This document shows, piece by piece, positions 4,848 to 62,721 of a stretch of 64,000 bases of DNA. The notes beneath the pieces were generated by a model. The model ran no database searches. It was not told the origin of the DNA and was given only the letters and a program-made list of their open reading frames with translations. The stretch lies in IMG/VR virus record IMGVR_UViG_3300025896_000028. One strand, given 5' to 3'. Numbering within the stretch: position 1 is the first letter of the stretch; the number at the start of each line of letters is the position of its first letter. The stretch comes from a virus. The position numbers were made by a program, and so were the translations under genes.

Positions 4848-5147
4848 ATGAAAACAAAATTATTCATGACAGTATTTGTGCTGTTATTATTGACTGGATG
4901 TGCTGATGTGGCACATATACAATTCCTTGACCCTAACCAAGAAATCTATGGTTTCTGGGGTGGTGTTTGGCACGGTATGATTATGTTCCCAGCATTTATC
5001 TGTAGTCTTTTCTCAGATAACATTGCTATCTACGCTATAAACAATAACGGTTTCTGGTATAACTTCGGTTATGTTGGTGGGTTAGGTATTATAATCAAGG
5101 GTATCAAAATCTTTTTTGCTGGTTTAAGAAGTTTAAACAATAGATAA
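4848..5147 (+). CDS. small membrane/lipoprotein
   Basis: Signal peptide with lipobox-like LLLLTGC; hydrophobic segments. Confidence 0.5.
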   Translation: MKTKLFMTVFVLLLLTGCADVAHIQFLDPNQEIYGFWGGVWHGMIMFPAFICSLFSDNIAIYAINNNGFWYNFGYVGGLGIIIKGIKIFFAGLRSLNNR

Positions 5148-5905
5148 TGAAAAAGAAAATCGTAATTTTTAGTGGTGCTGGTTTAGATAGAGAGTCGGGT
5201 GTATTAACATTCCGTGACTGTAAAGATGGCCTTTGGAATAACCACAAAATCGAAGATGTTGCTACACCAGAAGGATGGGCTAAAGACCGAAGTAAAGTTC
5301 TAGATTTTTATAATGAAAGAAGAAGACAAATGCCAGAAGTTGTACCTAATGATGCACATATTGGTTTAGTTGAATTAGAAAAAGAATTTGATGTAATACA
5401 CGTTACACAGAATGTAAGTGACTTATTGGAAAGAGCTGGGGCGACAAACATTATTCACTTGCATGGTGAGTTGACCAAAGCTAGAACAAGCTTCGCAATG
5501 AATAACCCTAATGTTGTTGCATCACAACACGTATATGATATTGGTTATGATGATATTAATTTGGGTGATTTAGATGCAGAATATGAATCTCAATTAAGAC
5601 CACATATTGTATGGTTTAGTGAATATCCATTTGGGGTTGATAAAGCAAATCAAGCATTTAGAGATGCTGATGTTGTTTTGATTATAGGTACAAGTCTTCA
5701 AATTAGTTATACCATTGGATTTTTTGGGTTAACAAAATTAGAGACTCCTATTATCTATATTGACCCAGAACCAAGTCATGACTTGGATTATACTTATCGA
5801 GAATTAAAAGTTGAATATATAACCAAGACAGCAGTTGAAGGTGTAACACAAGTAGTAAATAGATTATTAACACAAGCAATCGGAGACGATAAAAACGACA
5901 AATAA
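5147..5905 (+). CDS. Sir2-family protein lacking zinc-binding cysteines (SirTM-like)
   Basis: N-terminal VIFSGAGLDRESGVLTFRD Rossmann motif of sirtuins; no CxxC..CxxC module. Confidence 0.7.
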   Translation: MKKKIVIFSGAGLDRESGVLTFRDCKDGLWNNHKIEDVATPEGWAKDRSKVLDFYNERRRQMPEVVPNDAHIGLVELEKEFDVIHVTQNVSDLLERAGATNIIHLHGELTKARTSFAMNNPNVVASQHVYDIGYDDINLGDLDAEYESQLRPHIVWFSEYPFGVDKANQAFRDADVVLIIGTSLQISYTIGFFGLTKLETPIIYIDPEPSHDLDYTYRELKVEYITKTAVEGVTQVVNRLLTQAIGDDKNDK

Positions 5906-7267: not shown

Positions 7268-8260
7268 ATGAATGATTCAGTATTAGTAGCATTAGATGGT
7301 AGAGAAGATTTAGCGAATAACGTTATTGATTTTATCAATAACAATTCAAAGATAAAAGAGAAAGTAAAGCTAGACATAATCAACAGTCAGAAATTTTCTG
7401 ATGGTGAGTTATGTGTGGATTTCGAAACATCAATTAGAGGCAAGCGAGTATATATTCTATCTAGTCCTAACAATTCAGATGAAATCATAAAGTTAAACCT
7501 AGCGATAGATGCCGCCAAACGTGCAGCTGCTAGAGAGATTATTCCAATCTTACCTTATTTTCCATACGCTCGTCAAGACAAGAAAGACCAATCACGTGGA
7601 CCTATCGGTGCCAAGGTTATGGTTGAAATGATTGAGCATCGTGGAGCAACAGGTGTTATCACATTTGATTTACATGCTGACCAAATCCAAGGGTTTTTCA
7701 ATATCCCAGTTACACACTTAGAAGGTAAAAACGTATTTGATTCATACATCGCTTCGATATATGATGAAGACACTATTCTTTGTGGACCAGATGCTGGTTC
7801 TGGTAAACGTGTTAAACGTATGAAAGACCAATTATCTAACTACCACGACATTTCAATCAATTATGTAATGTTGGATAAGACTCGTAAACAAGCCAACGTT
7901 ATTGACGATATGGTAATCATTGGTGATGTTAGTGGTAAGAACGTAATCATCTTGGATGATATGGTTGATACTGCTGGAACACTTTGCAAAGCCGCTGAAG
8001 TTATTATGGAAGCTGGTGCTAAAAGTGTAAGAGCAATCATTAGTCATGGTATCTGTTCTGGTCCAGCTTTGGCTCGTATTGAAAATTCAGTTCTAACTGA
8101 ATTGGTTATTAGTGATTCCTTAAGAAAACCAACAGATTACAATGGTATCTTTGGTAATGATAAAATCAACGTGATTAGCATGTCAAAACAAATAGGTTTA
8201 GCTGTTAGTGCTATCAATAGTAAAACAAGCTACGAAGGACTTAAAAAAGAAAGATTCTAA
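7268..8260 (+). CDS. ribose-phosphate pyrophosphokinase (PRPP synthetase) homolog; possibly an ADP-ribose pyrophosphokinase (Adps-type)
   Basis: KFSDGE, DLHADQIQGFFNIPV and PRPP-binding loop VIILDDMVDTAGT are Prs-family hallmarks. Confidence 0.85.
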   Translation: MNDSVLVALDGREDLANNVIDFINNNSKIKEKVKLDIINSQKFSDGELCVDFETSIRGKRVYILSSPNNSDEIIKLNLAIDAAKRAAAREIIPILPYFPYARQDKKDQSRGPIGAKVMVEMIEHRGATGVITFDLHADQIQGFFNIPVTHLEGKNVFDSYIASIYDEDTILCGPDAGSGKRVKRMKDQLSNYHDISINYVMLDKTRKQANVIDDMVIIGDVSGKNVIILDDMVDTAGTLCKAAEVIMEAGAKSVRAIISHGICSGPALARIENSVLTELVISDSLRKPTDYNGIFGNDKINVISMSKQIGLAVSAINSKTSYEGLKKERF

Positions 8261-9095: not shown

Positions 9096-9318
9096 CTTCA
9101 CGTATTCCGACAACAATAGAAATCCTATTCAATGTACTGTACTATGTAAAGAAAAACCTAATTATATTGATTTGGAAGACTTGATTTACGTTAAGTTTAA
9201 TCATTACATAACTGAAAACAAATCAGTTAAAATTTCAAAAAACAACATTATTAAGTTTCTGAATAACAATGGTATAGAGTGTGTTAATAGAGCTTATTAC
9301 AAATCTAATAAAAAATAA
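9064..9318 (+). CDS. hypothetical protein
   Basis: ORF in operon context; no recognisable motif. Confidence 0.4.
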   Translation: MENPNYPHRFSFTYSDNNRNPIQCTVLCKEKPNYIDLEDLIYVKFNHYITENKSVKISKNNIIKFLNNNGIECVNRAYYKSNKK

Positions 9319-9319
9319 C

Positions 9320-10090
9320 ATGGGATTATCTTTAGGAGATAGAATGAAAGAATTCTACGAAAACAGAACAAAAACTTTTTTGAATAGAAGAACCATTACC
9401 ATCATTAGACTTGATGGGAAAGGATTCTCTAAATTCACTAAAAATTTAAACAAACCATTCGATGATGGATTCAGTGATGACATGGATGCAACAGCAATCT
9501 TTTTATGTGAGAACATTCAAGGTGCCAAGTTTGCTTATACACAATCTGACGAAATTAGCGTGGTGTTGTGCGACTATGATACACTTGAAACAAGTGCATG
9601 GTTCGACTATAGCGTACAAAAGATGACAAGTATTGCAGCCTCTTTGGCAACTGCTAAGTTCAACCAATTAAGACATTTAAGGTCAACAATGCAAGGTATG
9701 GAAGGGTTAGCTGAAAGCTTAAACAAACTAGCTTTCTTTGATGCTCGTGTATTCCAAGTTCCTACTGTTGATGAAATGGTTAACGCAATGATTTTCAGAC
9801 AGCAAGACTGTACTAGAAATAGTATTAGTATGGCAGCATCTGCTAACTTCTCTCACAAACTATTAGAGGGTAAATCTGGTAGTGATAAACAGGAAATGTT
9901 ATTTAACGAGAAGGGTATCAATTGGAATGACTATAAAACCAAGTATAAACGTGGTGTAGTTATCAAAAGAGTAGCTGATATAGACTATAGTGGTGAAGCA
10001 GCTGCTGTTAGACGTAACTGGGTACCATTAGAAACACCTATATTCACTAGTGATAGGGATTTTCTAATAAATCTTATGCCTAAATTGTAA
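9320..10090 (+). CDS. tRNA-His guanylyltransferase (Thg1)-like 3'-5' nucleotidyltransferase (TLP)
   Basis: IIRLDGKGFSKFT, YTQSDEISVVL and RQQDCTRNSI match Thg1/TLP catalytic motifs. Start set to the ATG at 9320 (track begins at 9281, overlapping the upstream gene). Confidence 0.8.
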   Translation: MGLSLGDRMKEFYENRTKTFLNRRTITIIRLDGKGFSKFTKNLNKPFDDGFSDDMDATAIFLCENIQGAKFAYTQSDEISVVLCDYDTLETSAWFDYSVQKMTSIAASLATAKFNQLRHLRSTMQGMEGLAESLNKLAFFDARVFQVPTVDEMVNAMIFRQQDCTRNSISMAASANFSHKLLEGKSGSDKQEMLFNEKGINWNDYKTKYKRGVVIKRVADIDYSGEAAAVRRNWVPLETPIFTSDRDFLINLMPKL

Positions 10091-12187: not shown

Positions 12188-12370
12188 ATGTACAAATTAT
12201 CGATTACTACACTTAAAGCTTTAAAGGCAGCTTTGGTAAACTCAAATGAAGTACTAACTGAATTGAGGGAAACAAATGATTTGCCATGGATATCTGGTGC
12301 AATCAAAAAAAACGAGGAACAAATTAGAATATTAACAGAACAATATTACATCGATGAAAGCACAAATTGA
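12188..12370 (+). CDS. small hypothetical protein
   Basis: ORF in operon context; no recognisable motif. Confidence 0.4.
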   Translation: MYKLSITTLKALKAALVNSNEVLTELRETNDLPWISGAIKKNEEQIRILTEQYYIDESTN

Positions 12371-12686
12371 TTTCTCTGAATTTTTAGAGATAGAAGGAAA
12401 ATTGGAAATTAAAATTGGTCGCATAACAGCATCTGAATCGGTACCAAAAAGCTATGGTATTAAATTAACCGTTGATTTCGGTAACGATGATGTTAGAACA
12501 GTTTTCACCAATTTAGGTAAAACATATAAACCAGAACAATTTATTGGTTTTGTAACACCATTCGTAACCAACTTGGCTCCAAGCGAAATCAAAGGTGTTT
12601 TGAGTCAAGCAATGATACTAGTTCCCCAAAACCTTAATGGTGATGATGAATGGTATGATTATTCAATAGGAACTAAATTATTATAA
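12354..12686 (+). CDS. tRNA-binding (CsaA/Trbp111/EMAP-like OB-fold) protein
   Basis: F.EF..L.L.IG.I..AE..P.SY..KL.VDFG......VF.....Y.PE.L.G pattern of the tRNA_bind domain. Confidence 0.6.
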   Translation: MKAQIDFSEFLEIEGKLEIKIGRITASESVPKSYGIKLTVDFGNDDVRTVFTNLGKTYKPEQFIGFVTPFVTNLAPSEIKGVLSQAMILVPQNLNGDDEWYDYSIGTKLL

Positions 12687-13423: not shown

Positions 13424-13645
13424 ATGCAAATAGATTTACATGGGACTAAACATGAAGATGTAATAAGAAAGATTGACATGTTTATATGGGAGTGTATTCA
13501 AAACAACACATCTCAAGGAAAGATAATAACTGGGAATTCTCAGATTATGAAACAAATAGTTACAAGTTGTTTGGCTGAACATGGGTTAACACCTAACAAT
13601 TTATTAGCAAATAACAACGTGGGTAGCATTACCTTTGACTTATAA
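13424..13645 (+). CDS. Smr-domain protein (small MutS-related nuclease domain)
   Basis: MQIDLHG...GKIITG pattern of Smr. Confidence 0.6.
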   Translation: MQIDLHGTKHEDVIRKIDMFIWECIQNNTSQGKIITGNSQIMKQIVTSCLAEHGLTPNNLLANNNVGSITFDL

Positions 13646-15907: not shown

Positions 15908-16359
15908 AAATACAAGCACCTAACTCAATACCCCTAACTCACGACTTAAAAGTCTTTTTGGGTGGTTCAATTGAAATGGGTAAAGCCATAAATTGGCAAA
16001 AAACACTTATCGAAGCATTGGCTGACAAACCAATCTTATTCTTAAATCCTCGTAGAGATGATTGGGATTCATCATGGATACAAAACATTAATGACGAGCA
16101 GTTTAGAACACAAGTAGAATGGGAATTAGATTCGATGGAACGTGCTGATATCATTGTTATGGTATTTGACCCTAACACTATGTCACCAATATCTTTATTG
16201 GAATTGGGATTACATTCAAAAAGTGGTAAGTTAGTTGTTATGTGTCCAGAAGGTTTCTGGCGAAAAGGTAATGTTGATATTGTTTGTAACACATATGACA
16301 TACCAATGGTTGAATCCATAGAAGAATTGATTCAATTTATCTTAGAAGATTTATGTTAA
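15892..16359 (+). CDS. nucleoside 2-deoxyribosyltransferase-like protein
   Basis: KVFLGGSIEMG..ADIIVMVFD..LELGLHSKSGKLVVMCPEG resembles the Nuc_deoxyrib_tr family. Confidence 0.55.
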   Translation: MGKAIEIQAPNSIPLTHDLKVFLGGSIEMGKAINWQKTLIEALADKPILFLNPRRDDWDSSWIQNINDEQFRTQVEWELDSMERADIIVMVFDPNTMSPISLLELGLHSKSGKLVVMCPEGFWRKGNVDIVCNTYDIPMVESIEELIQFILEDLC

Positions 16360-16889
16360 CAAAGATTCATAATAGTACGTTTCCAATTTTTTTTCAAGGT
16401 GATGAACTTAAGTACGTTAATTCAAGAGGTCTTAAAAACTTTGCTGACTTGGATACTAATATTGAAACTCATATAAGGAAAATAAAAGCCAATAACCCAG
16501 ATTCTGAAATAGAGGTAGTTTTTTATAGCCTTGAGAATGTGTTTAATGGTAAGTTAAGTTTAAATCTGGATGGTACGCAATCTTTTTTGATGGCTAGATA
16601 TGCTTATGTTGATGTTTCAGTGGGCCCCATCTATATCGTTGATTCACATGATAATGTAATCTTAGATTCTTTAAGATATTATAAGTACAAATTATACAAT
16701 CCAAACGAATCAGAACGAAATAACCCAGACGAATTTCAAGGTAAGCATGTCGTATGGTTTCAACCAGTTAGCTATAATGAAAAACTTAAACATAAAATAG
16801 GTTGGTCGGAAAAATTAAGTAGAATTACCGATGAAAATTTCATAAAACAATTAGAATTAGAATTGATTAAAAAAATAATAAATGAATAA
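16353..16889 (+). CDS. hypothetical protein
   Basis: ORF in operon context; no recognisable motif. Confidence 0.45.
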   Translation: MLTKIHNSTFPIFFQGDELKYVNSRGLKNFADLDTNIETHIRKIKANNPDSEIEVVFYSLENVFNGKLSLNLDGTQSFLMARYAYVDVSVGPIYIVDSHDNVILDSLRYYKYKLYNPNESERNNPDEFQGKHVVWFQPVSYNEKLKHKIGWSEKLSRITDENFIKQLELELIKKIINE

Positions 16890-17376
16890 AAAGAAACAGC
16901 ATAAGCTTAATTCAGAAATCATCGCAAAAGAAGTGCGTGTTGCTGAAGAAGGTGGTATTATGGCGTTATCAGCAGCCCTAGCAATTGCTGAATCTAGAAA
17001 CATGGATTTGGTTCTTATCAACGATAAGACAGTCCCAGTAATTTGTAAGATAATGAACTACGAGAAGTTCATCTACGAATTAAGCAAGAAGCCTAAAAAC
17101 AAAGGGTTAGACGTAAAAGAAATCAAGCTTGGACCGAATACAACAGATAATGATTTGGAATACCGAATCAAACACATGGTTGAATTCCTTAAAAAAGGTC
17201 ACAGAGTTAAGATTAGCCTTCAGTTCAGAGGTCGTCAAATGCAACACATTGATATTGGACAACAACAAATACTTAAAATGATTGTTGCCGTTGAAGAATT
17301 TGGGTCAGCAGAAGCTATGCCTAAGTTAGAAGGTAAAAAAATGTTTGCGGTAATCAAACCGAAAGTGGTTAAATAA
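16882..17376 (+). CDS. infC: translation initiation factor IF-3 homolog
   Basis: Aligns end-to-end with bacterial IF3: INSEIIAKEVRV.., KIMNYEKFIYE.., LQFRGRQMQH.., C-terminal KKMFAVIKPK. Confidence 0.8.
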   Translation: MNKKKQHKLNSEIIAKEVRVAEEGGIMALSAALAIAESRNMDLVLINDKTVPVICKIMNYEKFIYELSKKPKNKGLDVKEIKLGPNTTDNDLEYRIKHMVEFLKKGHRVKISLQFRGRQMQHIDIGQQQILKMIVAVEEFGSAEAMPKLEGKKMFAVIKPKVVK

Positions 17377-17378
17377 CC

Positions 17379-17407
17379 TTGACACTTATTTTTATTATGA
17401 CTATAAT
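17379..17407 (+). promoter_or_regulatory. perfect sigma-70 consensus TTGACA-N17-TATAAT
   Basis: ttgaca cttatttttattatgac tataat, 5 nt upstream of the ATG at ~17413. Unusual in a genome otherwise using TAnnTTTG promoters. Confidence 0.35.
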
Positions 17408-17412
17408 TGTAT

Positions 17413-17886
17413 ATGGAAAAATTCATATACGATTATTTGTCAAAAAATTATTACATTGATACTAGCGAAGTTGGTAACGATGGGATATACTCTATTTCCG
17501 ATGATAGGAAATTTAAAACACCGCATTGTGGTAAAAAGCTAACCAATGAGTTAATCACTGTATTTAACATTGCAGAAGAAGAAGCTAAGCTTTTTATCCA
17601 TCTTTGGTCTAGCAACATAAAACCAGATGTAGACTTAGAATTCTACTGGCAAACCCTAGAAACTTTATTTGAAAACGTAGCGTTTCCAATGGTTCGAAGA
17701 GTATTTGCACAAACCCTAGCTATGGATTTGGTACCAGTTGTACCATTGTCAATGCCTAATCTTGATTTGGTTTATTTGGATTTTCAATACAAAGAAGAAA
17801 CTTTGTATGAAAAGGTTAAAAATAAAATTATTGAAGTTATGGAGAATATTTATTATAGAATATTAGGATTATTCAAAAATAATTAA
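17413..17886 (+). CDS. hypothetical protein
   Basis: Track start at 17407 is a TTG; the ATG at ~17413 is preferred. Confidence 0.5.
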   Translation: MEKFIYDYLSKNYYIDTSEVGNDGIYSISDDRKFKTPHCGKKLTNELITVFNIAEEEAKLFIHLWSSNIKPDVDLEFYWQTLETLFENVAFPMVRRVFAQTLAMDLVPVVPLSMPNLDLVYLDFQYKEETLYEKVKNKIIEVMENIYYRILGLFKNN

Positions 17887-29806: not shown

Positions 29807-30158
29807 AAACCGTTCGTAAGGAAGAATGATTGGAAGTTCTTTTGTTTGAAATGTTAGTTTTTAATTTGAGGGGTACGTAACCCGATAACAAGGTTCCTAG
29901 CATTAGAAAGAAAAGTATTCGCTGGTGGTCATAAGCCAGAGATTGTGGGTTCGAGTCCCATCCTTACCACAAGTCGCTTTGATGTTCCACTATGGAGAGC
30001 AGTTTGGATAGTTATGAAACTGGTAGCAGAATAGAGGTTTTAAAAGTTTAACCATAATAAAGCACGGCTTATTCCCAAAGAAAGGGGTTTCCTAGCCTAA
30101 TACAGAAACAAAAATAACATGAGGGTGTGTTAACCGAGGCTAAAGGTAGCACCCAAAT

Positions 30159-30362
30159 GGTTAGATGGCAGAATGGAATTGCTAATTAACAAGGTTAAGT
30201 AATGGGTTGCCGATGAGATGAGTTAGTGGACAAGTCGTGTAAACAGGTGTAACATTCATCAACCCAATAAAAGTCGTAATAATAATAAAACCTTATGTCC
30301 CAGTCAAATGGTGTCGACTAAGCGACTATAATTACACACAGGTTCGATTCCTGTTCTAACCA
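30159..30362 (+). tRNA. tRNA-like element with a ~130-nt insertion between D-arm and T-arm (candidate intron-containing tRNA)
   Basis: Perfect acceptor ggttaga/tctaacc; U8; canonical D-arm gcag-aatggaa-ttgc; candidate anticodon stem aatta/taatt flanking the insertion; T-arm acagg-ttcgatt-cctgt; ends ..ACCA. Confidence 0.35.
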
Positions 30363-30594
30363 CGAAGCCTGTTCGAGAGGTAAATCTAAGCGTAATCCTC
30401 TGACGTATAAGGTGCTTAGCTGATTGAGAAGCAGTCTTGGACAATGTGTCTGAAAATATCTTGACTATTCGGAAAGACGAAGATTACTACTTGACATGAG
30501 GCGTTAGCGACACCGAGAGTAGGGTAACAAAGAAAGACGCTCCGTGATGCTAATGATTCGGATATATGTTACTCGTTGCTGGTAGTAATCAAAT

Positions 30595-30668
30595 GGGAGT
30601 ATAGTACAATAGTATAGTATAAAGCGGCTGTAGCTGCGAGAACACGGGTTAGAGTCCCGTTACTTCCA
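30595..30668 (+). tRNA. tRNA-like element (74 nt), anticodon arm non-canonical
   Basis: Acceptor gggagta/tacttcc (7 bp including one GU); D-stem gtac/gtat; T-arm acggg-ttagagt-cccgt; discriminator A. The anticodon position is occupied by a gcggc-tgta-gctgc tetraloop hairpin. Confidence 0.4.
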
Positions 30669-30781
30669 CAAGAAATCCAACGGTTAAGCCCTATGGTCAC
30701 TGTACACAAACTATGGTAATTGGCAATGACGATGTGCACTCTTCATACTGCAATGGTTGACACTAGGAAAGACTAGAAACT

Positions 30782-30880
30782 GCGAGAGTGGCGAAGTTGG
30801 TAAACGCTAAGGTCTTTAGCCCGAAGTACAAGGGAACAACTAGGGACGTGGTGTCGGTGGTTCGAGTCCACCCTCTCGCA
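30782..30880 (+). tRNA. tRNA-like element (~99 nt), possibly type II or intron-containing
   Basis: Perfect acceptor gcgagag/ctctcgc; 3-bp D-stem gcg/cgc with an 11-nt loop; T-arm ggtgg-ttcgagt-ccacc; discriminator A. 48 nt lie between the D-arm and T-arm. Confidence 0.45.
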
Positions 30881-30977
30881 CAAAATTGGGGAATAGCAAC
30901 ATGAAGGTCGGCAAACTTTCAGACGGTTATAATCCTTTCTATCACGTTTAGCTTTGCCGAGCGACATGGTGATAGTT

Positions 30978-31048
30978 GATTCATTAGTGGAGTGGAACCA
31001 CGGGGGGCGTTGAGCCCGCAGACACTGGTTCGAATCCAGTATGAGTTT
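30978..31048 (+). tRNA. tRNA-like element (~71 nt)
   Basis: Acceptor gattcat/atgagtt (2 GU pairs); D-arm gtgg-agtggaa-ccac; T-arm actgg-ttcgaat-ccagt; weak anticodon stem with loop ttgagcc (possible GAG). Confidence 0.35.
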
Positions 31049-31156
31049 CTAGGTTATACTATTAAAGCGACATTGGTTGAGTAGTCCAGTGAGGGCACAC
31101 ATTAACAGTTTTAGCGAAAGGCTAAGGTGATAGACCACCATATAGTATAACCGAAT

Positions 31157-31255
31157 ATATAGCTAGCTCAGTGGTAGAGTGCCGAAATGGGAGCACATCG
31201 GAAGATGCAGTACCAATCGCTTGCGGAGATGGGGGTTCGATTCCCTCGCTATGTA
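31157..31255 (+). tRNA. tRNA-like element (~99 nt)
   Basis: Acceptor atatagc/gctatgt; D-arm gctc-agtggta-gagt; T-arm ggggg-ttcgatt-ccctc; 49 nt lie between the D-arm and T-arm. Confidence 0.45.
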
Positions 31256-31272
31256 CTAAAAAAGAATACAAT

Positions 31273-31968: not shown

Positions 31969-32000
31969 GATATTAACTAAATTAATCGTACCTTTGCACT

Positions 32001-32444
32001 ATGAAATCAATAACGAAAAACAAACGAGCATATTTTGAATACAATATACTCGAAAAGCACATAGCTGGTATTCAACTACAAGGTTCCGAGGTCAAATCAA
32101 TAAAATCAAGCAAGGTTTCTATAGTGGAAGCCTATTGTTTTATTACCAATGATGAAATCTTTATCAAAGGAATGCACGTAACCGAACACAAAGAAGGTGG
32201 CAAGTACTACAACCATCAACCGCTAAGGGATAGAAAGCTTCTTATGAAAAAGAAAGAAATAATCAAGCTACGTGAAAGTATTTCACAAAAAGGCTTGACT
32301 ATTGTGCCATTGGAGATTATACTATCAAACACTGGATTCATTAAATTGGAAATTGGTCTTGCCAAAGGTAAGCACCTATACGACAAACGCAATAGTTTGA
32401 AAGAGAAAGACTTAAAAAGAGAAGTTGAAAGAAACTTAGATTAA
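32001..32444 (+). CDS. smpB: SsrA-binding protein SmpB homolog
   Basis: NKRAYFEYNILEKHIAGIQLQGSEVKSIK.., ..RDRKLLMKKKEI.., ..LEIGLAKGKHLYDKR.. align with bacterial SmpB. TAccTTTG motif at ~31990. Confidence 0.85.
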   Translation: MKSITKNKRAYFEYNILEKHIAGIQLQGSEVKSIKSSKVSIVEAYCFITNDEIFIKGMHVTEHKEGGKYYNHQPLRDRKLLMKKKEIIKLRESISQKGLTIVPLEIILSNTGFIKLEIGLAKGKHLYDKRNSLKEKDLKREVERNLD

Positions 32445-32900: not shown

Positions 32901-33785
32901 ATGAGACAATTTAAAATTGCACAGAAGTACACAAACACTGAGAACGATTCATTTAAACAATACTTAAAAGACATATCTGGTATTCCTATGTTCACACCAG
33001 AGGAAGAAAAGATATGCACTGAAAAAGCTAGTAAAGGTGATAGAAAAGCGATTGACGAATTGGTGCGTAGAAACCTACGTTTCGTAGTATCGGTTGCGAA
33101 GCAATATGCAACTGAAAATGTTCACTTGGAAGACTTGGTTAACGAAGGTAACATTGGGTTGGTATTGGCGGCTGAGAAGTTCACACCAGATATGGGTTAC
33201 AAATTTATTTCATACGCTGTATGGTGGGTTAGAAAAATCATAATGGAACATATTACCAAGTATGGTAAATTGGTTCGTATTCCAGCAAACAAGGTTAACA
33301 ACTTGTCTAAGTTGGATAAGTATATCCAAGAGTTGGAACAAAAAGCTGGTCGTAGTGTTGACATCAACGAAGTTATTAGTGAGTTCGGTAACGAGTTATC
33401 TAGCGAAGACTTTATGTTCTTAGATGTATTGAATACATACAACATGGATTCAATGGACCGAACAATTGGAACTGATGATGGTGGTAATGGTTCTATGTTA
33501 TCAGACTTAATCTCTGATGATTCAACATATAAAGCTACAGACCATTTATTGAATCAACAAGATATTCAATCAGAGATTGCGGCTAGCCTAGATATCTTGA
33601 AGCCAAGAGATAAACGTATCATGGAAGCATTGTTCGGGTTGAATGGGGCAATACCAATGACCTTGAAAGAGATTGGTGATGAAGTTGGTATCACACGTGA
33701 AATGGCTCGTCAAGTTAAAGAGAAATCACTTAAGAAATTAAGACAAAATGCTAGAGTAAATTTAGCTTACAATGAATTGAACTAA
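32901..33785 (+). CDS. sigma-70 family RNA polymerase sigma factor (regions 2-4)
   Basis: Region 2 RRNLRFVVSVAKQY, region 2.4 YAVWWVRKIIMEHI, region 4 HTH LKEIGDEVGITREMARQVKEKSLKKLR. Confidence 0.8.
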   Translation: MRQFKIAQKYTNTENDSFKQYLKDISGIPMFTPEEEKICTEKASKGDRKAIDELVRRNLRFVVSVAKQYATENVHLEDLVNEGNIGLVLAAEKFTPDMGYKFISYAVWWVRKIIMEHITKYGKLVRIPANKVNNLSKLDKYIQELEQKAGRSVDINEVISEFGNELSSEDFMFLDVLNTYNMDSMDRTIGTDDGGNGSMLSDLISDDSTYKATDHLLNQQDIQSEIAASLDILKPRDKRIMEALFGLNGAIPMTLKEIGDEVGITREMARQVKEKSLKKLRQNARVNLAYNELN

Positions 33786-38648: not shown

Positions 38649-38682
38649 ATGACACTATCGTTTGGTAGTGTCATTTTTTTTG
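38649..38682 (+). terminator. rho-independent terminator
   Basis: atgacactatcgtttggtagtgtcat followed by ttttttttg. Overlaps the spurious 5' extension of ORF 38649. Confidence 0.55.
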
Positions 38683-61757: not shown

Positions 61758-61971
61758 ATGGTTAAACAGGAAGTAACATACTACCCAGATACATTTAGAA
61801 TCAAAGAATACAAAGAATATCATAACGATGTTTTAGTTGTTCACACCAAATATGATGAGAACAACAAAAAGGTTTATATATATCTAGCCTATGCTGATTT
61901 TCTATGGGAAACTAAAGAAAAAATATTGGTGTAGATTTGCATATATGAAATATTATATGTACCTTTGTACT

Positions 61972-62721
61972 ATGAAAAAAGATAAACTATACGGAGCAAT
62001 ACTTGGTGACCTCGTAGGACAACCCTACGAGTTTCCCATTATGGCAAACTTCCCACCAGAAGATACAATCAACCTACATAACCCAGATTCAGTATTTAGC
62101 GATGATACGCTAATGACACTGGCAACCGCCAAAGCAATCCTAGATAACCAATCATTCGAGGAAGCATACAAAGAAGTAGGTATGAGATACCAAGGCGACC
62201 ACTATGGCAAAGACTTCAAAGAATGGCTTAACTCACCAATGGGTACGATTAATAAATCTTGGGGCAACGGGTGTCTGATGAGAATAGCACCGTTTATGTA
62301 TCTATCAAACGCTTTGTTAACAACCAAAGAACTTATCGCTGAATCTTGCCTAACATCACACGTGAACGCTGAAAGCATTGTATATTCGTTGGAATTGGCT
62401 GAACTGTACTATACAAATCTTAATGAGTATGACTACTTTATTAAGTTTAAATTATTTCCATTTACAAAGTTTGAAGTGAAAGCCAAAGATACATTTAGAT
62501 TCTGTAAAAGTGCATTTATCTATCATTCAGATAAGAATACCCAAGATGCTATCAAAAATGTTGTTAGCTGTGGCGGTGATACAGATACCAACGCATCAAT
62601 AGTTGGTGAACTACTTAACTATCACCTTCAAGACCTAACACAAGCAGACATAGACTACGTAGAAAGTAAACTAGACCCTTATCTACTAGATATCCTTAAA
62701 CGATTTAATGAAAGATACTAA
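61972..62721 (+). CDS. ADP-ribosylglycohydrolase (ARH/DraG family)
   Basis: N-terminal LYGAILGDLVGQPYEF (GAxxGDxxGxPxE) and C-terminal SCGGDTDTNASIVGELL di-metal motifs. Start re-set to the ATG after tacctttgtact (track begins at 61891). Confidence 0.75.
   Translation: MKKDKLYGAILGDLVGQPYEFPIMANFPPEDTINLHNPDSVFSDDTLMTLATAKAILDNQSFEEAYKEVGMRYQGDHYGKDFKEWLNSPMGTINKSWGNGCLMRIAPFMYLSNALLTTKELIAESCLTSHVNAESIVYSLELAELYYTNLNEYDYFIKFKLFPFTKFEVKAKDTFRFCKSAFIYHSDKNTQDAIKNVVSCGGDTDTNASIVGELLNYHLQDLTQADIDYVESKLDPYLLDILKRFNERY

Follow-up and report, generated by a model that had tools for sequence, protein, structure and literature searches.

A full-length translation initiation factor IF3 in a jumbo-phage lineage with probable Bacteroidota hosts

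Why would a phage carry a gene encoding the translation initiation factor IF3, and would its product still work as an initiation factor? The question is raised by an infC homolog at 16882-17376 in a 64,000-nucleotide stretch of viral DNA, IMG/VR record IMGVR_UViG_3300025896_000028 (the whole stretch is called the window below). In this study, we found that this open reading frame (ORF) is a full-length IF3 homolog with both domains. Gene order, relatives and substitution rates identify it as a near-core gene that a jumbo-phage lineage has inherited vertically and kept under selection. We consider it fairly probable that the gene encodes an active IF3 by which the capacity for initiation on behalf of the phage is kept up or increased.

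The IF3 reading frame and its predicted fold

The gene and the parts of its product are as follows.

16882-17376, plus strand: phage infC homolog (IF3), 164 amino acids (aa), ATG start, isoelectric point 9.7 (ORF list, profile searches, model)
16909-17100, plus strand: IF3 N-terminal domain, residues 10-73 (Pfam, alignment, model)
17062-17112, plus strand: Lys-rich interdomain linker, approximately residues 61-77 (alignment, model)
17110-17364, plus strand: IF3 C-terminal (30S-binding) domain, residues 77-161 (Pfam, alignment, model)

Because an in-frame TAA directly precedes the ATG at 16882, a longer N-terminus of IF3 is impossible. Both domains were matched by Pfam profiles. IF3_N (PF05198; cutoff 26.9 bits) reached 70.3 bits over residues 10-73 (profile positions 2-69 of 70), and IF3_C (PF00707) scored 100.6 bits against a cutoff of 34.8 over residues 77-161, with the profile complete (positions 2-86 of 86). 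The NCBIfam infC equivalog TIGR00168 was matched with 145.7 bits (cutoff 60; profile positions 2-168 of 170), and the PHROG 9787 profile with E=1e-38 (positions 2-167 of 168). The top sequence match in the PDB was E. coli IF3 (E=5.6e-30, residues 5-161), followed by the 171-residue IF3 chain of 5me0 (E=3.3e-29), which we take to be the Geobacillus factor; both domains were aligned in each. An AlphaFold2 model built with 36 family members as input had a mean pLDDT (predicted local distance difference test) of 85, and all of its top 25 Foldseek matches in the PDB were IF3 or mitochondrial IF3. The C-domain of the model, with the secondary-structure order E-H-E-H-E-E-E, was compared with 1tig (TM 0.92, root-mean-square deviation (rmsd) 1.2 Å), and the N-domain with 1tif (TM 0.80, rmsd 2.4 Å). 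The predicted fold agrees with that of ribosome-bound IF3. The original prediction, which was made from the letters of the window, had proposed a full-length phage-encoded IF3 with N-domain, linker and C-domain, and Pfam, TIGR00168 and the fold all agree with it. It had named similarity confined to one domain as the result that would speak against it; both domains were matched.

From E. coli mutagenesis, we presume that R99, Y107, K110, R112, R116, R129, R131, R133, R147 and R168 are implicated in 30S binding, and from the infC362 mutant we take Y75 to be a fidelity residue. Nineteen distinct members of the phage family were aligned, with E. coli numbering used for all positions. R25, Y70, K72, Y75, K79, D106 and R133 were invariant in all 19 members, and K110R, R112K, R131R/K, R147K and R168K were conservative changes. 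In the window protein, the invariant R25 corresponds to R19, R66 to K56, Y75 to Y65 and K79 to K69. The residues of initiator-tRNA discrimination, which had been singled out earlier for such an alignment, are thus accounted for: R25 and Y75 do not vary, and the R66 position is Lys in 17 of the 19 sequences and Arg in two. In a published comparison of bacterial IF3s, R25 is invariant and R66 well conserved, and in solved 30S pre-initiation complexes both touch the elbow of the initiator tRNA; Q33 is variable (PMC9723500).

The phage protein also departs from cellular IF3 in length. Its Lys-rich linker (YELSKKPKNKGLD) is 5 residues shorter than in the IF3 of E. coli, Geobacillus and Bacteroidota, and this shortening is clade-wide. 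The beta-hairpin of the N-domain is 5 residues shorter than in cellular IF3, and the deletion adjoins position 33; it is absent from a sub-branch of the family (L011, L012, L016, L017 and L020). The basic N-terminal tail, which has about 20 residues in Bacteroidota IF3, is missing from the phage protein.

Phage context, likely host and origin of the gene

All non-nested ORFs of at least 100 aa in the 64-kb window lie on the plus strand, the GC content is about 33%, and the GC skew is positive throughout. Among the products encoded in the window are a T5 A1-like DNA-transfer protein (PHROG 1745, E=6.6e-151) and a phage-type sigma factor; there are also many small ORFs without matches, and other PHROG matches. 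An identical IF3 protein is also present on metagenomic contigs. IF3 homologues numbered more than 600 at E<=1e-5, with 62-100% identity among the 120 listed. Relatives 51-99% identical to the window protein were found on 24 IMG/VR viral contigs, whose sizes include 232,931, 306,463 and 368,549 bp, the first of these being IMGVR_UViG_3300033984_000473. The conserved order around IF3 is A1-like, NUDIX, AAA, nucleoside-deoxyribosyltransferase-like (NDT-like), IF3, gp23-N-like, a 126-aa gene, HAD_SAK_1, RNase R and metallophosphoesterase. When loci were anchored on RNase R, IF3 lay 0.6-7.3 kb upstream of it in 21 of the 23 that had enough upstream DNA to be assessed. IF3 was missing from the two most divergent of these loci, L139 and L140, within the flanks examined (approximately 8-10 kb upstream and 10 kb downstream of RNase R). 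These two (3300006105_002083 and 3300009420_003882) keep the A1-like, HAD_SAK and RNase R genes and may serve as natural IF3-minus comparators.

The same context extends beyond the clade. The best non-clade match among 1.84 billion representatives was P0125, with 43% identity, on contig L114, where Thg1, A1-like, AAA, IF3, tRNA_bind, HAD_SAK_1, RNase R, phosphoesterase and SmpB occur together. A TnpB/Cas12f1-like gene with a TNB domain (L114, 30-1154) adjoins this Thg1/A1-like/IF3 module. The ratio of nonsynonymous to synonymous substitution rates (dN/dS, Nei-Gojobori) was 0.025 between the window and L001 (dS 0.30), and it ranged from 0.025 to 0.35, with a median of 0.19, over 51 unsaturated pairs. 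These results indicate that IF3 is under purifying selection. Neither thrS, rpmI nor rplT was found near the phage IF3, and none of the 24 copies is followed by rpmI-rplT. Host contamination or a pseudogene was ruled out by the synteny, the ATG start, the neighbours and the dN/dS. The viral status is based on gene content, synteny, relatives and selection, together with the IMG/VR classification.

IF3 has been reported in huge phages (PMC7162821), where such genes are seen as redirecting host translation (Al-Shayeb et al.). It has also been reported in 'group 2.2' jumbo phages, for which Iyer et al. propose ribosome rescue or support of phage translation (PMC7824862), and in phage Sharanji (PMC11895373). 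The gene had been predicted to be rare in phages. This holds in number, with IF3 matches in 78 of 50,697 INPHARED records, but not as a claim of novelty, since PHROG 9787 and the published phages already include IF3. Phage IF3 is a known category, and what is added here is a large, previously undescribed Bacteroidota-phage lineage with signature changes of its own. The 78 records include the RaK2/K64-1 group, E. coli jumbo phages, Phosso and huge phages. Some of the 78 look like bacterial contamination, and suspect records probably inflate the apparent count. Among these suspects are Listeria phage LM 4-14-1, Enterococcus phage IME_EF3 and 'Bacteriophage sp.' MT83xxxx, whose genes resemble ordinary host infC or rnr. 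Since positions 10-30 kb of the window gave no megablast match to INPHARED phages, the lineage has no cultured close relative there.

The host was sought in promoters and leaders. The octamer TACCTTTG occurs 44 times in the window (38 on the plus strand) against 2.8 expected, usually about 19-21 nt 3' of TTTG/TTAGG and just upstream of ORFs. The Bacteroidota promoter consists of TTTG at -33 and TAnnTTTG at -7, as refined for Flavobacterium johnsoniae, and an A-rich, Kozak-like leader pattern has been described for the phylum (PMC6847099). The octamer elements match this -33/-7 consensus. Almost every small gene is preceded by this promoter, in the form of TTTGG/TTAGG, a spacing of about 21 nt and then TACCTTTG(TA), and copies are densest at 35-64 kb (e.g. 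39006, 41930, 48420 and 55020). Shine-Dalgarno (SD) initiation was ruled out for the phage, since GGAG/GAGG was found upstream of none of the 81 window genes. These genes have leaders poor in G, in which A peaks at -3 and again at -11 to -13. In addition, the nearest counterparts of the A1-like protein come from Maribacter, Cellulophaga and Flavobacterium phages. We are almost certain that the host is a member of the Bacteroidota; hosts of the lineage are probably Flavobacteriia-like and SD-less.

To place the gene among cellular IF3s, 185,579 species genomes were scanned with seeds of shared 8-mers. Among the best 80 genome loci, those with a phylum-level label were all Bacteroidota, at 38-44% identity, except about nine contigs whose bins bear the names of other taxa. 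Against the phage protein, the IF3s of Flavobacteriales and other Bacteroidota scored 122-136 bits, E. coli IF3 107 and Geobacillus IF3 105, and the closest named cellular IF3s were those of Flavobacteriales. In a neighbour-joining tree, the phage clade was monophyletic. It first joined metagenomic IF3s, P0125 among them; the huge phage LR756504 came next, and the Bacteroidota group after it. Farther from the clade were the branches of RaK2, fEgEco12, Phosso, Geobacillus and E. coli. The position of RaK2, fEgEco12 and Phosso outside the group formed by Bacteroidota and the clade suggests that the phage IF3 groups were acquired independently. A Bacteroidota-type infC is the likely source of the phage IF3 described here.

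Bacteroidota cellular IF3s (e.g. F. johnsoniae; L029, L054 and L106) have the same two domains and are the best-scoring named cellular relatives. They share with the phage protein the derived motifs GPNT (with Gly at E. coli R99), K112-H (K-x-K-H) and MPKLEGKKMF; GPNT and MPKLEGKKMF lie in the C-domain. The phage also uses the SD-less, A-rich initiation context of this phylum. Besides the missing tail, the shorter hairpin and the shorter linker, the phage protein differs from Bacteroidota IF3 at position 107, which is Leu in the phage and Phe or Tyr in Bacteroidota, and its gene starts with ATG outside an operon, whereas the cellular gene starts with ATA or ATT within thrS-infC-rpmI-rplT. The IF3s of E. 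coli and Geobacillus (8jsg, 5me0, 1tif and 1tig) are homologous over the full length, with 37-40% identity and the same folds. Relative to them, the phage protein carries R99G, Y107L, R116E and R129Q and has a shorter linker and hairpin, and its gene lacks the AUU start. The IF3s of other jumbo or huge phages (Klebsiella phage RaK2/K64-1; E. coli phages fEgEco12, Sharanji and relatives; Sinorhizobium phage Phosso; the uncultured huge phages LR756501/LR756504) are likewise full-length and come from very large genomes with translation and RNA-repair genes. However, the window IF3 is only 32-40% identical to them, their neighbourhoods differ (dda helicase and a protease adaptor in RaK2 and fEgEco12, a ClpX-like gene in Phosso), and the window lineage, unlike these carriers, infects Bacteroidota-type hosts.

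Start codon, transcription and proposed role

The start codon separates the phage gene from cellular infC. All 24 phage IF3 genes start with ATG. The infC of F. johnsoniae starts with ATA and appears to be autoregulated as in E. coli (PMC7797042). Several Flavobacteriales infC loci retain the order thrS-infC-rpmI-rplT; in L054, thrS is followed by an infC without a canonical start before the conserved N-terminus, and then by L35 and L20. The phage gene has neither the near-cognate start nor this order, both of which are features of cellular infC. In five cellular loci, L029 (4230-4255), L030, L054 (4940-4965), L082 and L106 (Flavobacteriales), AAGGAGG was seen 5-6 nt before ATT/ATC, with no canonical start before the conserved N-terminus. 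Such an SD-like sequence is striking in an SD-avoiding phylum, and it suggests regulation by an SD together with a near-cognate start.

The elements that flank the gene, and bear on its expression, are listed below.

13630-13637, plus strand: nearest upstream host-type -7 element (TACCTTTG), from the motif count
16353-16889, plus strand: upstream ORF of 178 aa without assigned function, from the ORF list
17379-17407, plus strand: perfect TTGACA-17-TATAAT promoter-like site, 2 nt 3' of the IF3 stop
17413-17886, plus strand: conserved gene after infC, 157 aa from the ATG at 17413, from synteny and the L025 gene call

The stop of the 178-aa ORF overlaps the IF3 start by 8 nt (ATGAATAA), and translation of IF3 may be coupled to it. 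This ORF is confined to the window and its near-identical relatives; in the other loci, IF3 directly follows the NDT-like gene. No terminator was predicted between 13630 and infC. The 13630 element is a candidate promoter, read by host RNA polymerase, of a unit comprising GIY-YIG, AAA, small ORFs, NDT-like, the 178-aa ORF and IF3, with infC last. The 17379-17407 site would mark the end of this unit. The ATG of the next gene (17413) lies 5 nt beyond its -10 hexamer, and TTtACa-N17-TAtaAT followed by ATG after 4-6 nt recurs 3' of infC in L002, L004-L008, L010-L015, L017 and L019. A sigma-70 consensus promoter was dropped as a general feature of the window, where promoter-like sites of this type were at chance level (74 found against 78 expected; 2 against 1.87 for TTGACA-17-TATAAT with at most one mismatch). 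The conserved position after infC in relatives is what suggests that the 17379-17407 site is real. It looks different from the host-type promoter (TTTG...TACCTTTG) and may be read with the phage RpoD/RpoS-like sigma factor (32901-33785). For the product of 17413-17886, a Pfam match of 24.6 bits lay barely above the cutoff of 24.4; it pairs residues 88-136 with positions 4-54 of the T4 major capsid protein Gp23, and this stretch, similar to the N-terminal propeptide region, might be a capsid-targeting segment or one processed by a prohead protease.

The geometry of the 17379-17407 site predicts a leaderless or near-leaderless transcript. Eight promoters of the form TACCTTTG-(tact/cact/ccct/tagt)-ATG were found at 31989, 38685, 44945, 45531, 57497, 58208, 59521 and 61960. 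In F. johnsoniae, transcription starts 4-5 nt after the -7 element and most transcripts have leaders (PMC6847099). Because of this start position, the eight genes, including that for SmpB, would be leaderless. At least five ORF start calls (TTG at 17407 and 45528; ATG at 38649, 57494 and 61891) have an ATG a few codons downstream, 4-5 nt after the promoter element. These calls are probably too far upstream and artefacts of ORF calling; a separate gene call on the near-identical contig L025 gave a 157-aa product, in agreement with the ATG at 17413. An earlier suggestion was that the phage IF3 favours non-AUG starts such as TTG. This did not hold up, since AUG, GUG and UUG are all canonical for IF3, which does not discriminate against them (PMC4611024), and the TTG calls at 17407 and 45528, of the kind taken as a hint, look like artefacts with a downstream ATG. 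The other idea put forward, that phage leaders are favoured, may hold: the phage has distinctive leaders and several genes of leaderless type, although leaderless mRNAs are antagonised by canonical IF3.

For the active factor that we favour, we infer 30S binding, effects on initiation and interplay with host infC as follows. An infC gene would have been acquired long ago by a jumbo-phage lineage of Bacteroidota and inherited vertically since then. The C-domain of the phage IF3 would bind the platform of the host 30S subunit. The 30S subunits would be kept apart from 50S and free for new initiation, and they would be helped to shed tRNA and mRNA after recycling. The N-domain would proofread the initiator tRNA and the start codon. 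As a result, initiation capacity for phage mRNAs would be maintained or raised. Because the gene starts with ATG and lies outside the thrS-infC-rpmI-rplT operon, synthesis of the phage IF3 would escape the autoregulation that acts through a near-cognate start. By the logic of that autoregulation, an active phage IF3 would repress translation of host infC, and the IF3 pool would then be phage-supplied. We propose that IF3 function is retained because the fold is conserved, as are the residues at the tRNA elbow and in the linker, the C-domain is basic, and purifying selection is strong.

Several observations weigh against this reading. The C-domain differs at R99G, Y107L/I/V (Y107L in the window), R116E and R129Q. 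R99, R116 and R129 are replaced by residues other than Arg in Bacteroidota IF3 too, but the aliphatic residue at 107 is specific to the phage IF3s compared, and none of the Bacteroidota, E. coli and Geobacillus sequences has it. The shortened hairpin beside the tRNA-contact position Q33, or the shorter linker, could alter fidelity. Canonical IF3 antagonises leaderless mRNAs (PMC4611024), and at least eight window genes have leaderless geometry, so that adding a standard IF3 is not obviously helpful to them. Two resolutions are conceivable, namely expression of these genes at low IF3 levels, or a phage factor that departs from the canonical one in its antagonism of leaderless mRNAs. The Bacteroidota origin was read from scores, motifs, an unbootstrapped neighbour-joining tree and an 8-mer-seeded scan, and no virion structural gene (capsid, terminase) was found in the 64-kb window. 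The literature searched held no biochemical or genetic study of any phage IF3. Finally, F. johnsoniae IF3 behaves unusually in vitro (PMC7797042), which makes extrapolation from E. coli uncertain.

Alternatively, the phage IF3 may be re-tuned. By its shorter hairpin and linker and the change of Y107 to Leu, such a factor would bind 30S with altered selectivity, displace host IF3 and bias initiation towards the A-rich, SD-less or leaderless phage mRNAs and away from those of the host. Clade-wide deletions and Y107 to L/I/V are kept under purifying selection, and the aliphatic residue recurs in the IF3 of RaK2, fEgEco12, LR756504 and Phosso and not in the cellular IF3s compared. At least eight genes of leaderless geometry, a conserved promoter abutting the ATG right after infC, and the difference from the likely host, in which most transcripts have leaders (PMC6847099), point the same way. 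However, the argument is built from sequence features, the longer hairpin kept in L011, L012, L016, L017 and L020 means that the deletion is not essential to the function of the family, and the invariant R25 (tRNA elbow) and Y75 (fidelity) argue for retained proofreading. We regard re-tuning as unlikely. A takeover device is more doubtful still. Here, phage IF3 without feedback would shut off host infC through its near-cognate start codon, replace its product and, by the shortened hairpin and linker and the Y107L change, relax the block on leaderless mRNAs with a 5'-terminal AUG, which would favour leaderless or short-leader phage transcripts, including that of the gene after infC. If true, no earlier virus would have been seen to take over the autoregulation of IF3 and thereby change the choice of start sites.

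The phage IF3 might instead be a spare or decoy in counter-defence, replacing or shielding a host IF3 inactivated by defence or by phage shut-off. Replacement of a host IF3 targeted by defence had been suggested earlier, but no evidence for it was found. The ATG start would make its supply independent of host regulation, and neighbours such as Thg1, HAD_SAK, SmpB, RNase R, NAD salvage, Macro, NADAR and ADP-ribosylglycohydrolase genes are typical of those directed against RNA- or NAD-targeting defences. However, we know of no defence system that targets IF3, our literature searches turned up none aimed at it, and the conservation fits an active factor as well as a decoy; we consider this improbable. 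That the gene does not belong to the phage at all, but is host infC brought in by mis-assembly, a prophage flank or a mis-binned contig, or a decaying passenger, is effectively refuted. In its favour, several INPHARED records with an IF3 or RNase R match are short and unannotated, or combine several contigs whose genes look bacterial, and capsid and terminase genes are missing from the window. Against this, the closest cellular IF3 is only 38-44% identical, and the phage gene order is shared by 24 IMG/VR contigs, the largest of 368 kb. Moreover, the 64 kb are coded on one strand with about 38 repeated promoters and an A1-like phage gene, thrS, rpmI and rplT are not nearby, and the gene has an ATG start and is under strong purifying selection.

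As a sequence finding alone, this phage IF3 is an expected member of its category, and its value lies mainly in providing a tractable test case. The lineage is well sampled, the likely host phylum is clear, and host initiation is unusual (no SD use and a Kozak-like A at -3). The lineage changes are defined (shorter tail, hairpin and linker, and Y107L), and a simple prediction follows: the ATG-started phage IF3 should repress the ATA- or ATT-started infC of the host. Since a reconstituted initiation system and infC-gfp reporters exist for F. johnsoniae (PMC7797042), viral supply or re-tuning of an initiation factor is directly testable.

Neighbouring translation and RNA-repair genes

The window holds further genes related to translation and RNA repair.

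9281-10090, plus strand: Thg1-like 3'-5' tRNA nucleotidyltransferase (profile search)
12354-12686, plus strand: tRNA_bind domain protein, similar to the MetRS C-terminus and CsaA
13424-13642, plus strand: Smr-domain protein, 73 aa
18296-18811, plus strand: HAD_SAK_1 RNA-repair-type HAD protein, syntenic with IF3
19406-21334, plus strand: RNase R (TIGR02063 equivalog, 692 bits against a cutoff of 598)
32001-32444, plus strand: SmpB, trans-translation factor (Pfam E=1.5e-52), with a leaderless-type promoter at 31989

IF3 had been described as lying among RNA-repair genes and RNase R, and the neighbours are as stated: Thg1-like, tRNA_bind, Smr and NUDIX genes are found upstream, and HAD_SAK_1 and RNase R downstream. 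These results suggest that IF3 is part of a set of phage genes for translation maintenance, along with those for SmpB, RNase R, Smr, Thg1 and RNA repair, which would share a role in keeping ribosomes and tRNAs usable during RNA damage or turnover. This agrees with the proposal of Iyer et al. for phage IF3 and with the view of Al-Shayeb et al. on such genes. In the distant relative L114, too, SmpB is present, a few genes 3' of RNase R. By analogy with L114, the ORF at 24615-25118 was considered as SmpB and rejected, as it gave no match; SmpB is at 32001-32444. A tmRNA was not found in the window by ARAGORN or Rfam, even at E<=0.1 in 28.8-32.1 kb.

An RNA-rich stretch of higher GC content and about 1.4 kb lies at 29850-31260. 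Rfam matched tRNAs at 30595-30668, 30782-30880 (99 nt), 30978-31048 and 31157-31255 (99 nt), and ARAGORN called only a tRNA-Gln at 30978-31049 in this stretch. The length of the two 99-nt matches suggests tRNAs with insertions or long variable arms; a GTG ORF call at 31171 overlaps one of them. More T-arm- or acceptor-like sequences were seen near 29940-29975 and 30335-30365.

The window also carries a set of genes for NAD salvage and reversal of ADP-ribosylation, comprising NAPRTase, Sir2, PRPP synthetase, ADP-ribosylglycohydrolase, NADAR and Macro (14-1057, 5147-5905, 7268-8260, 61891-62721 and further ORFs to which no position was assigned). Sets of this kind are typical of the means by which jumbo phages counter defences that deplete NAD or attach ADP-ribose.

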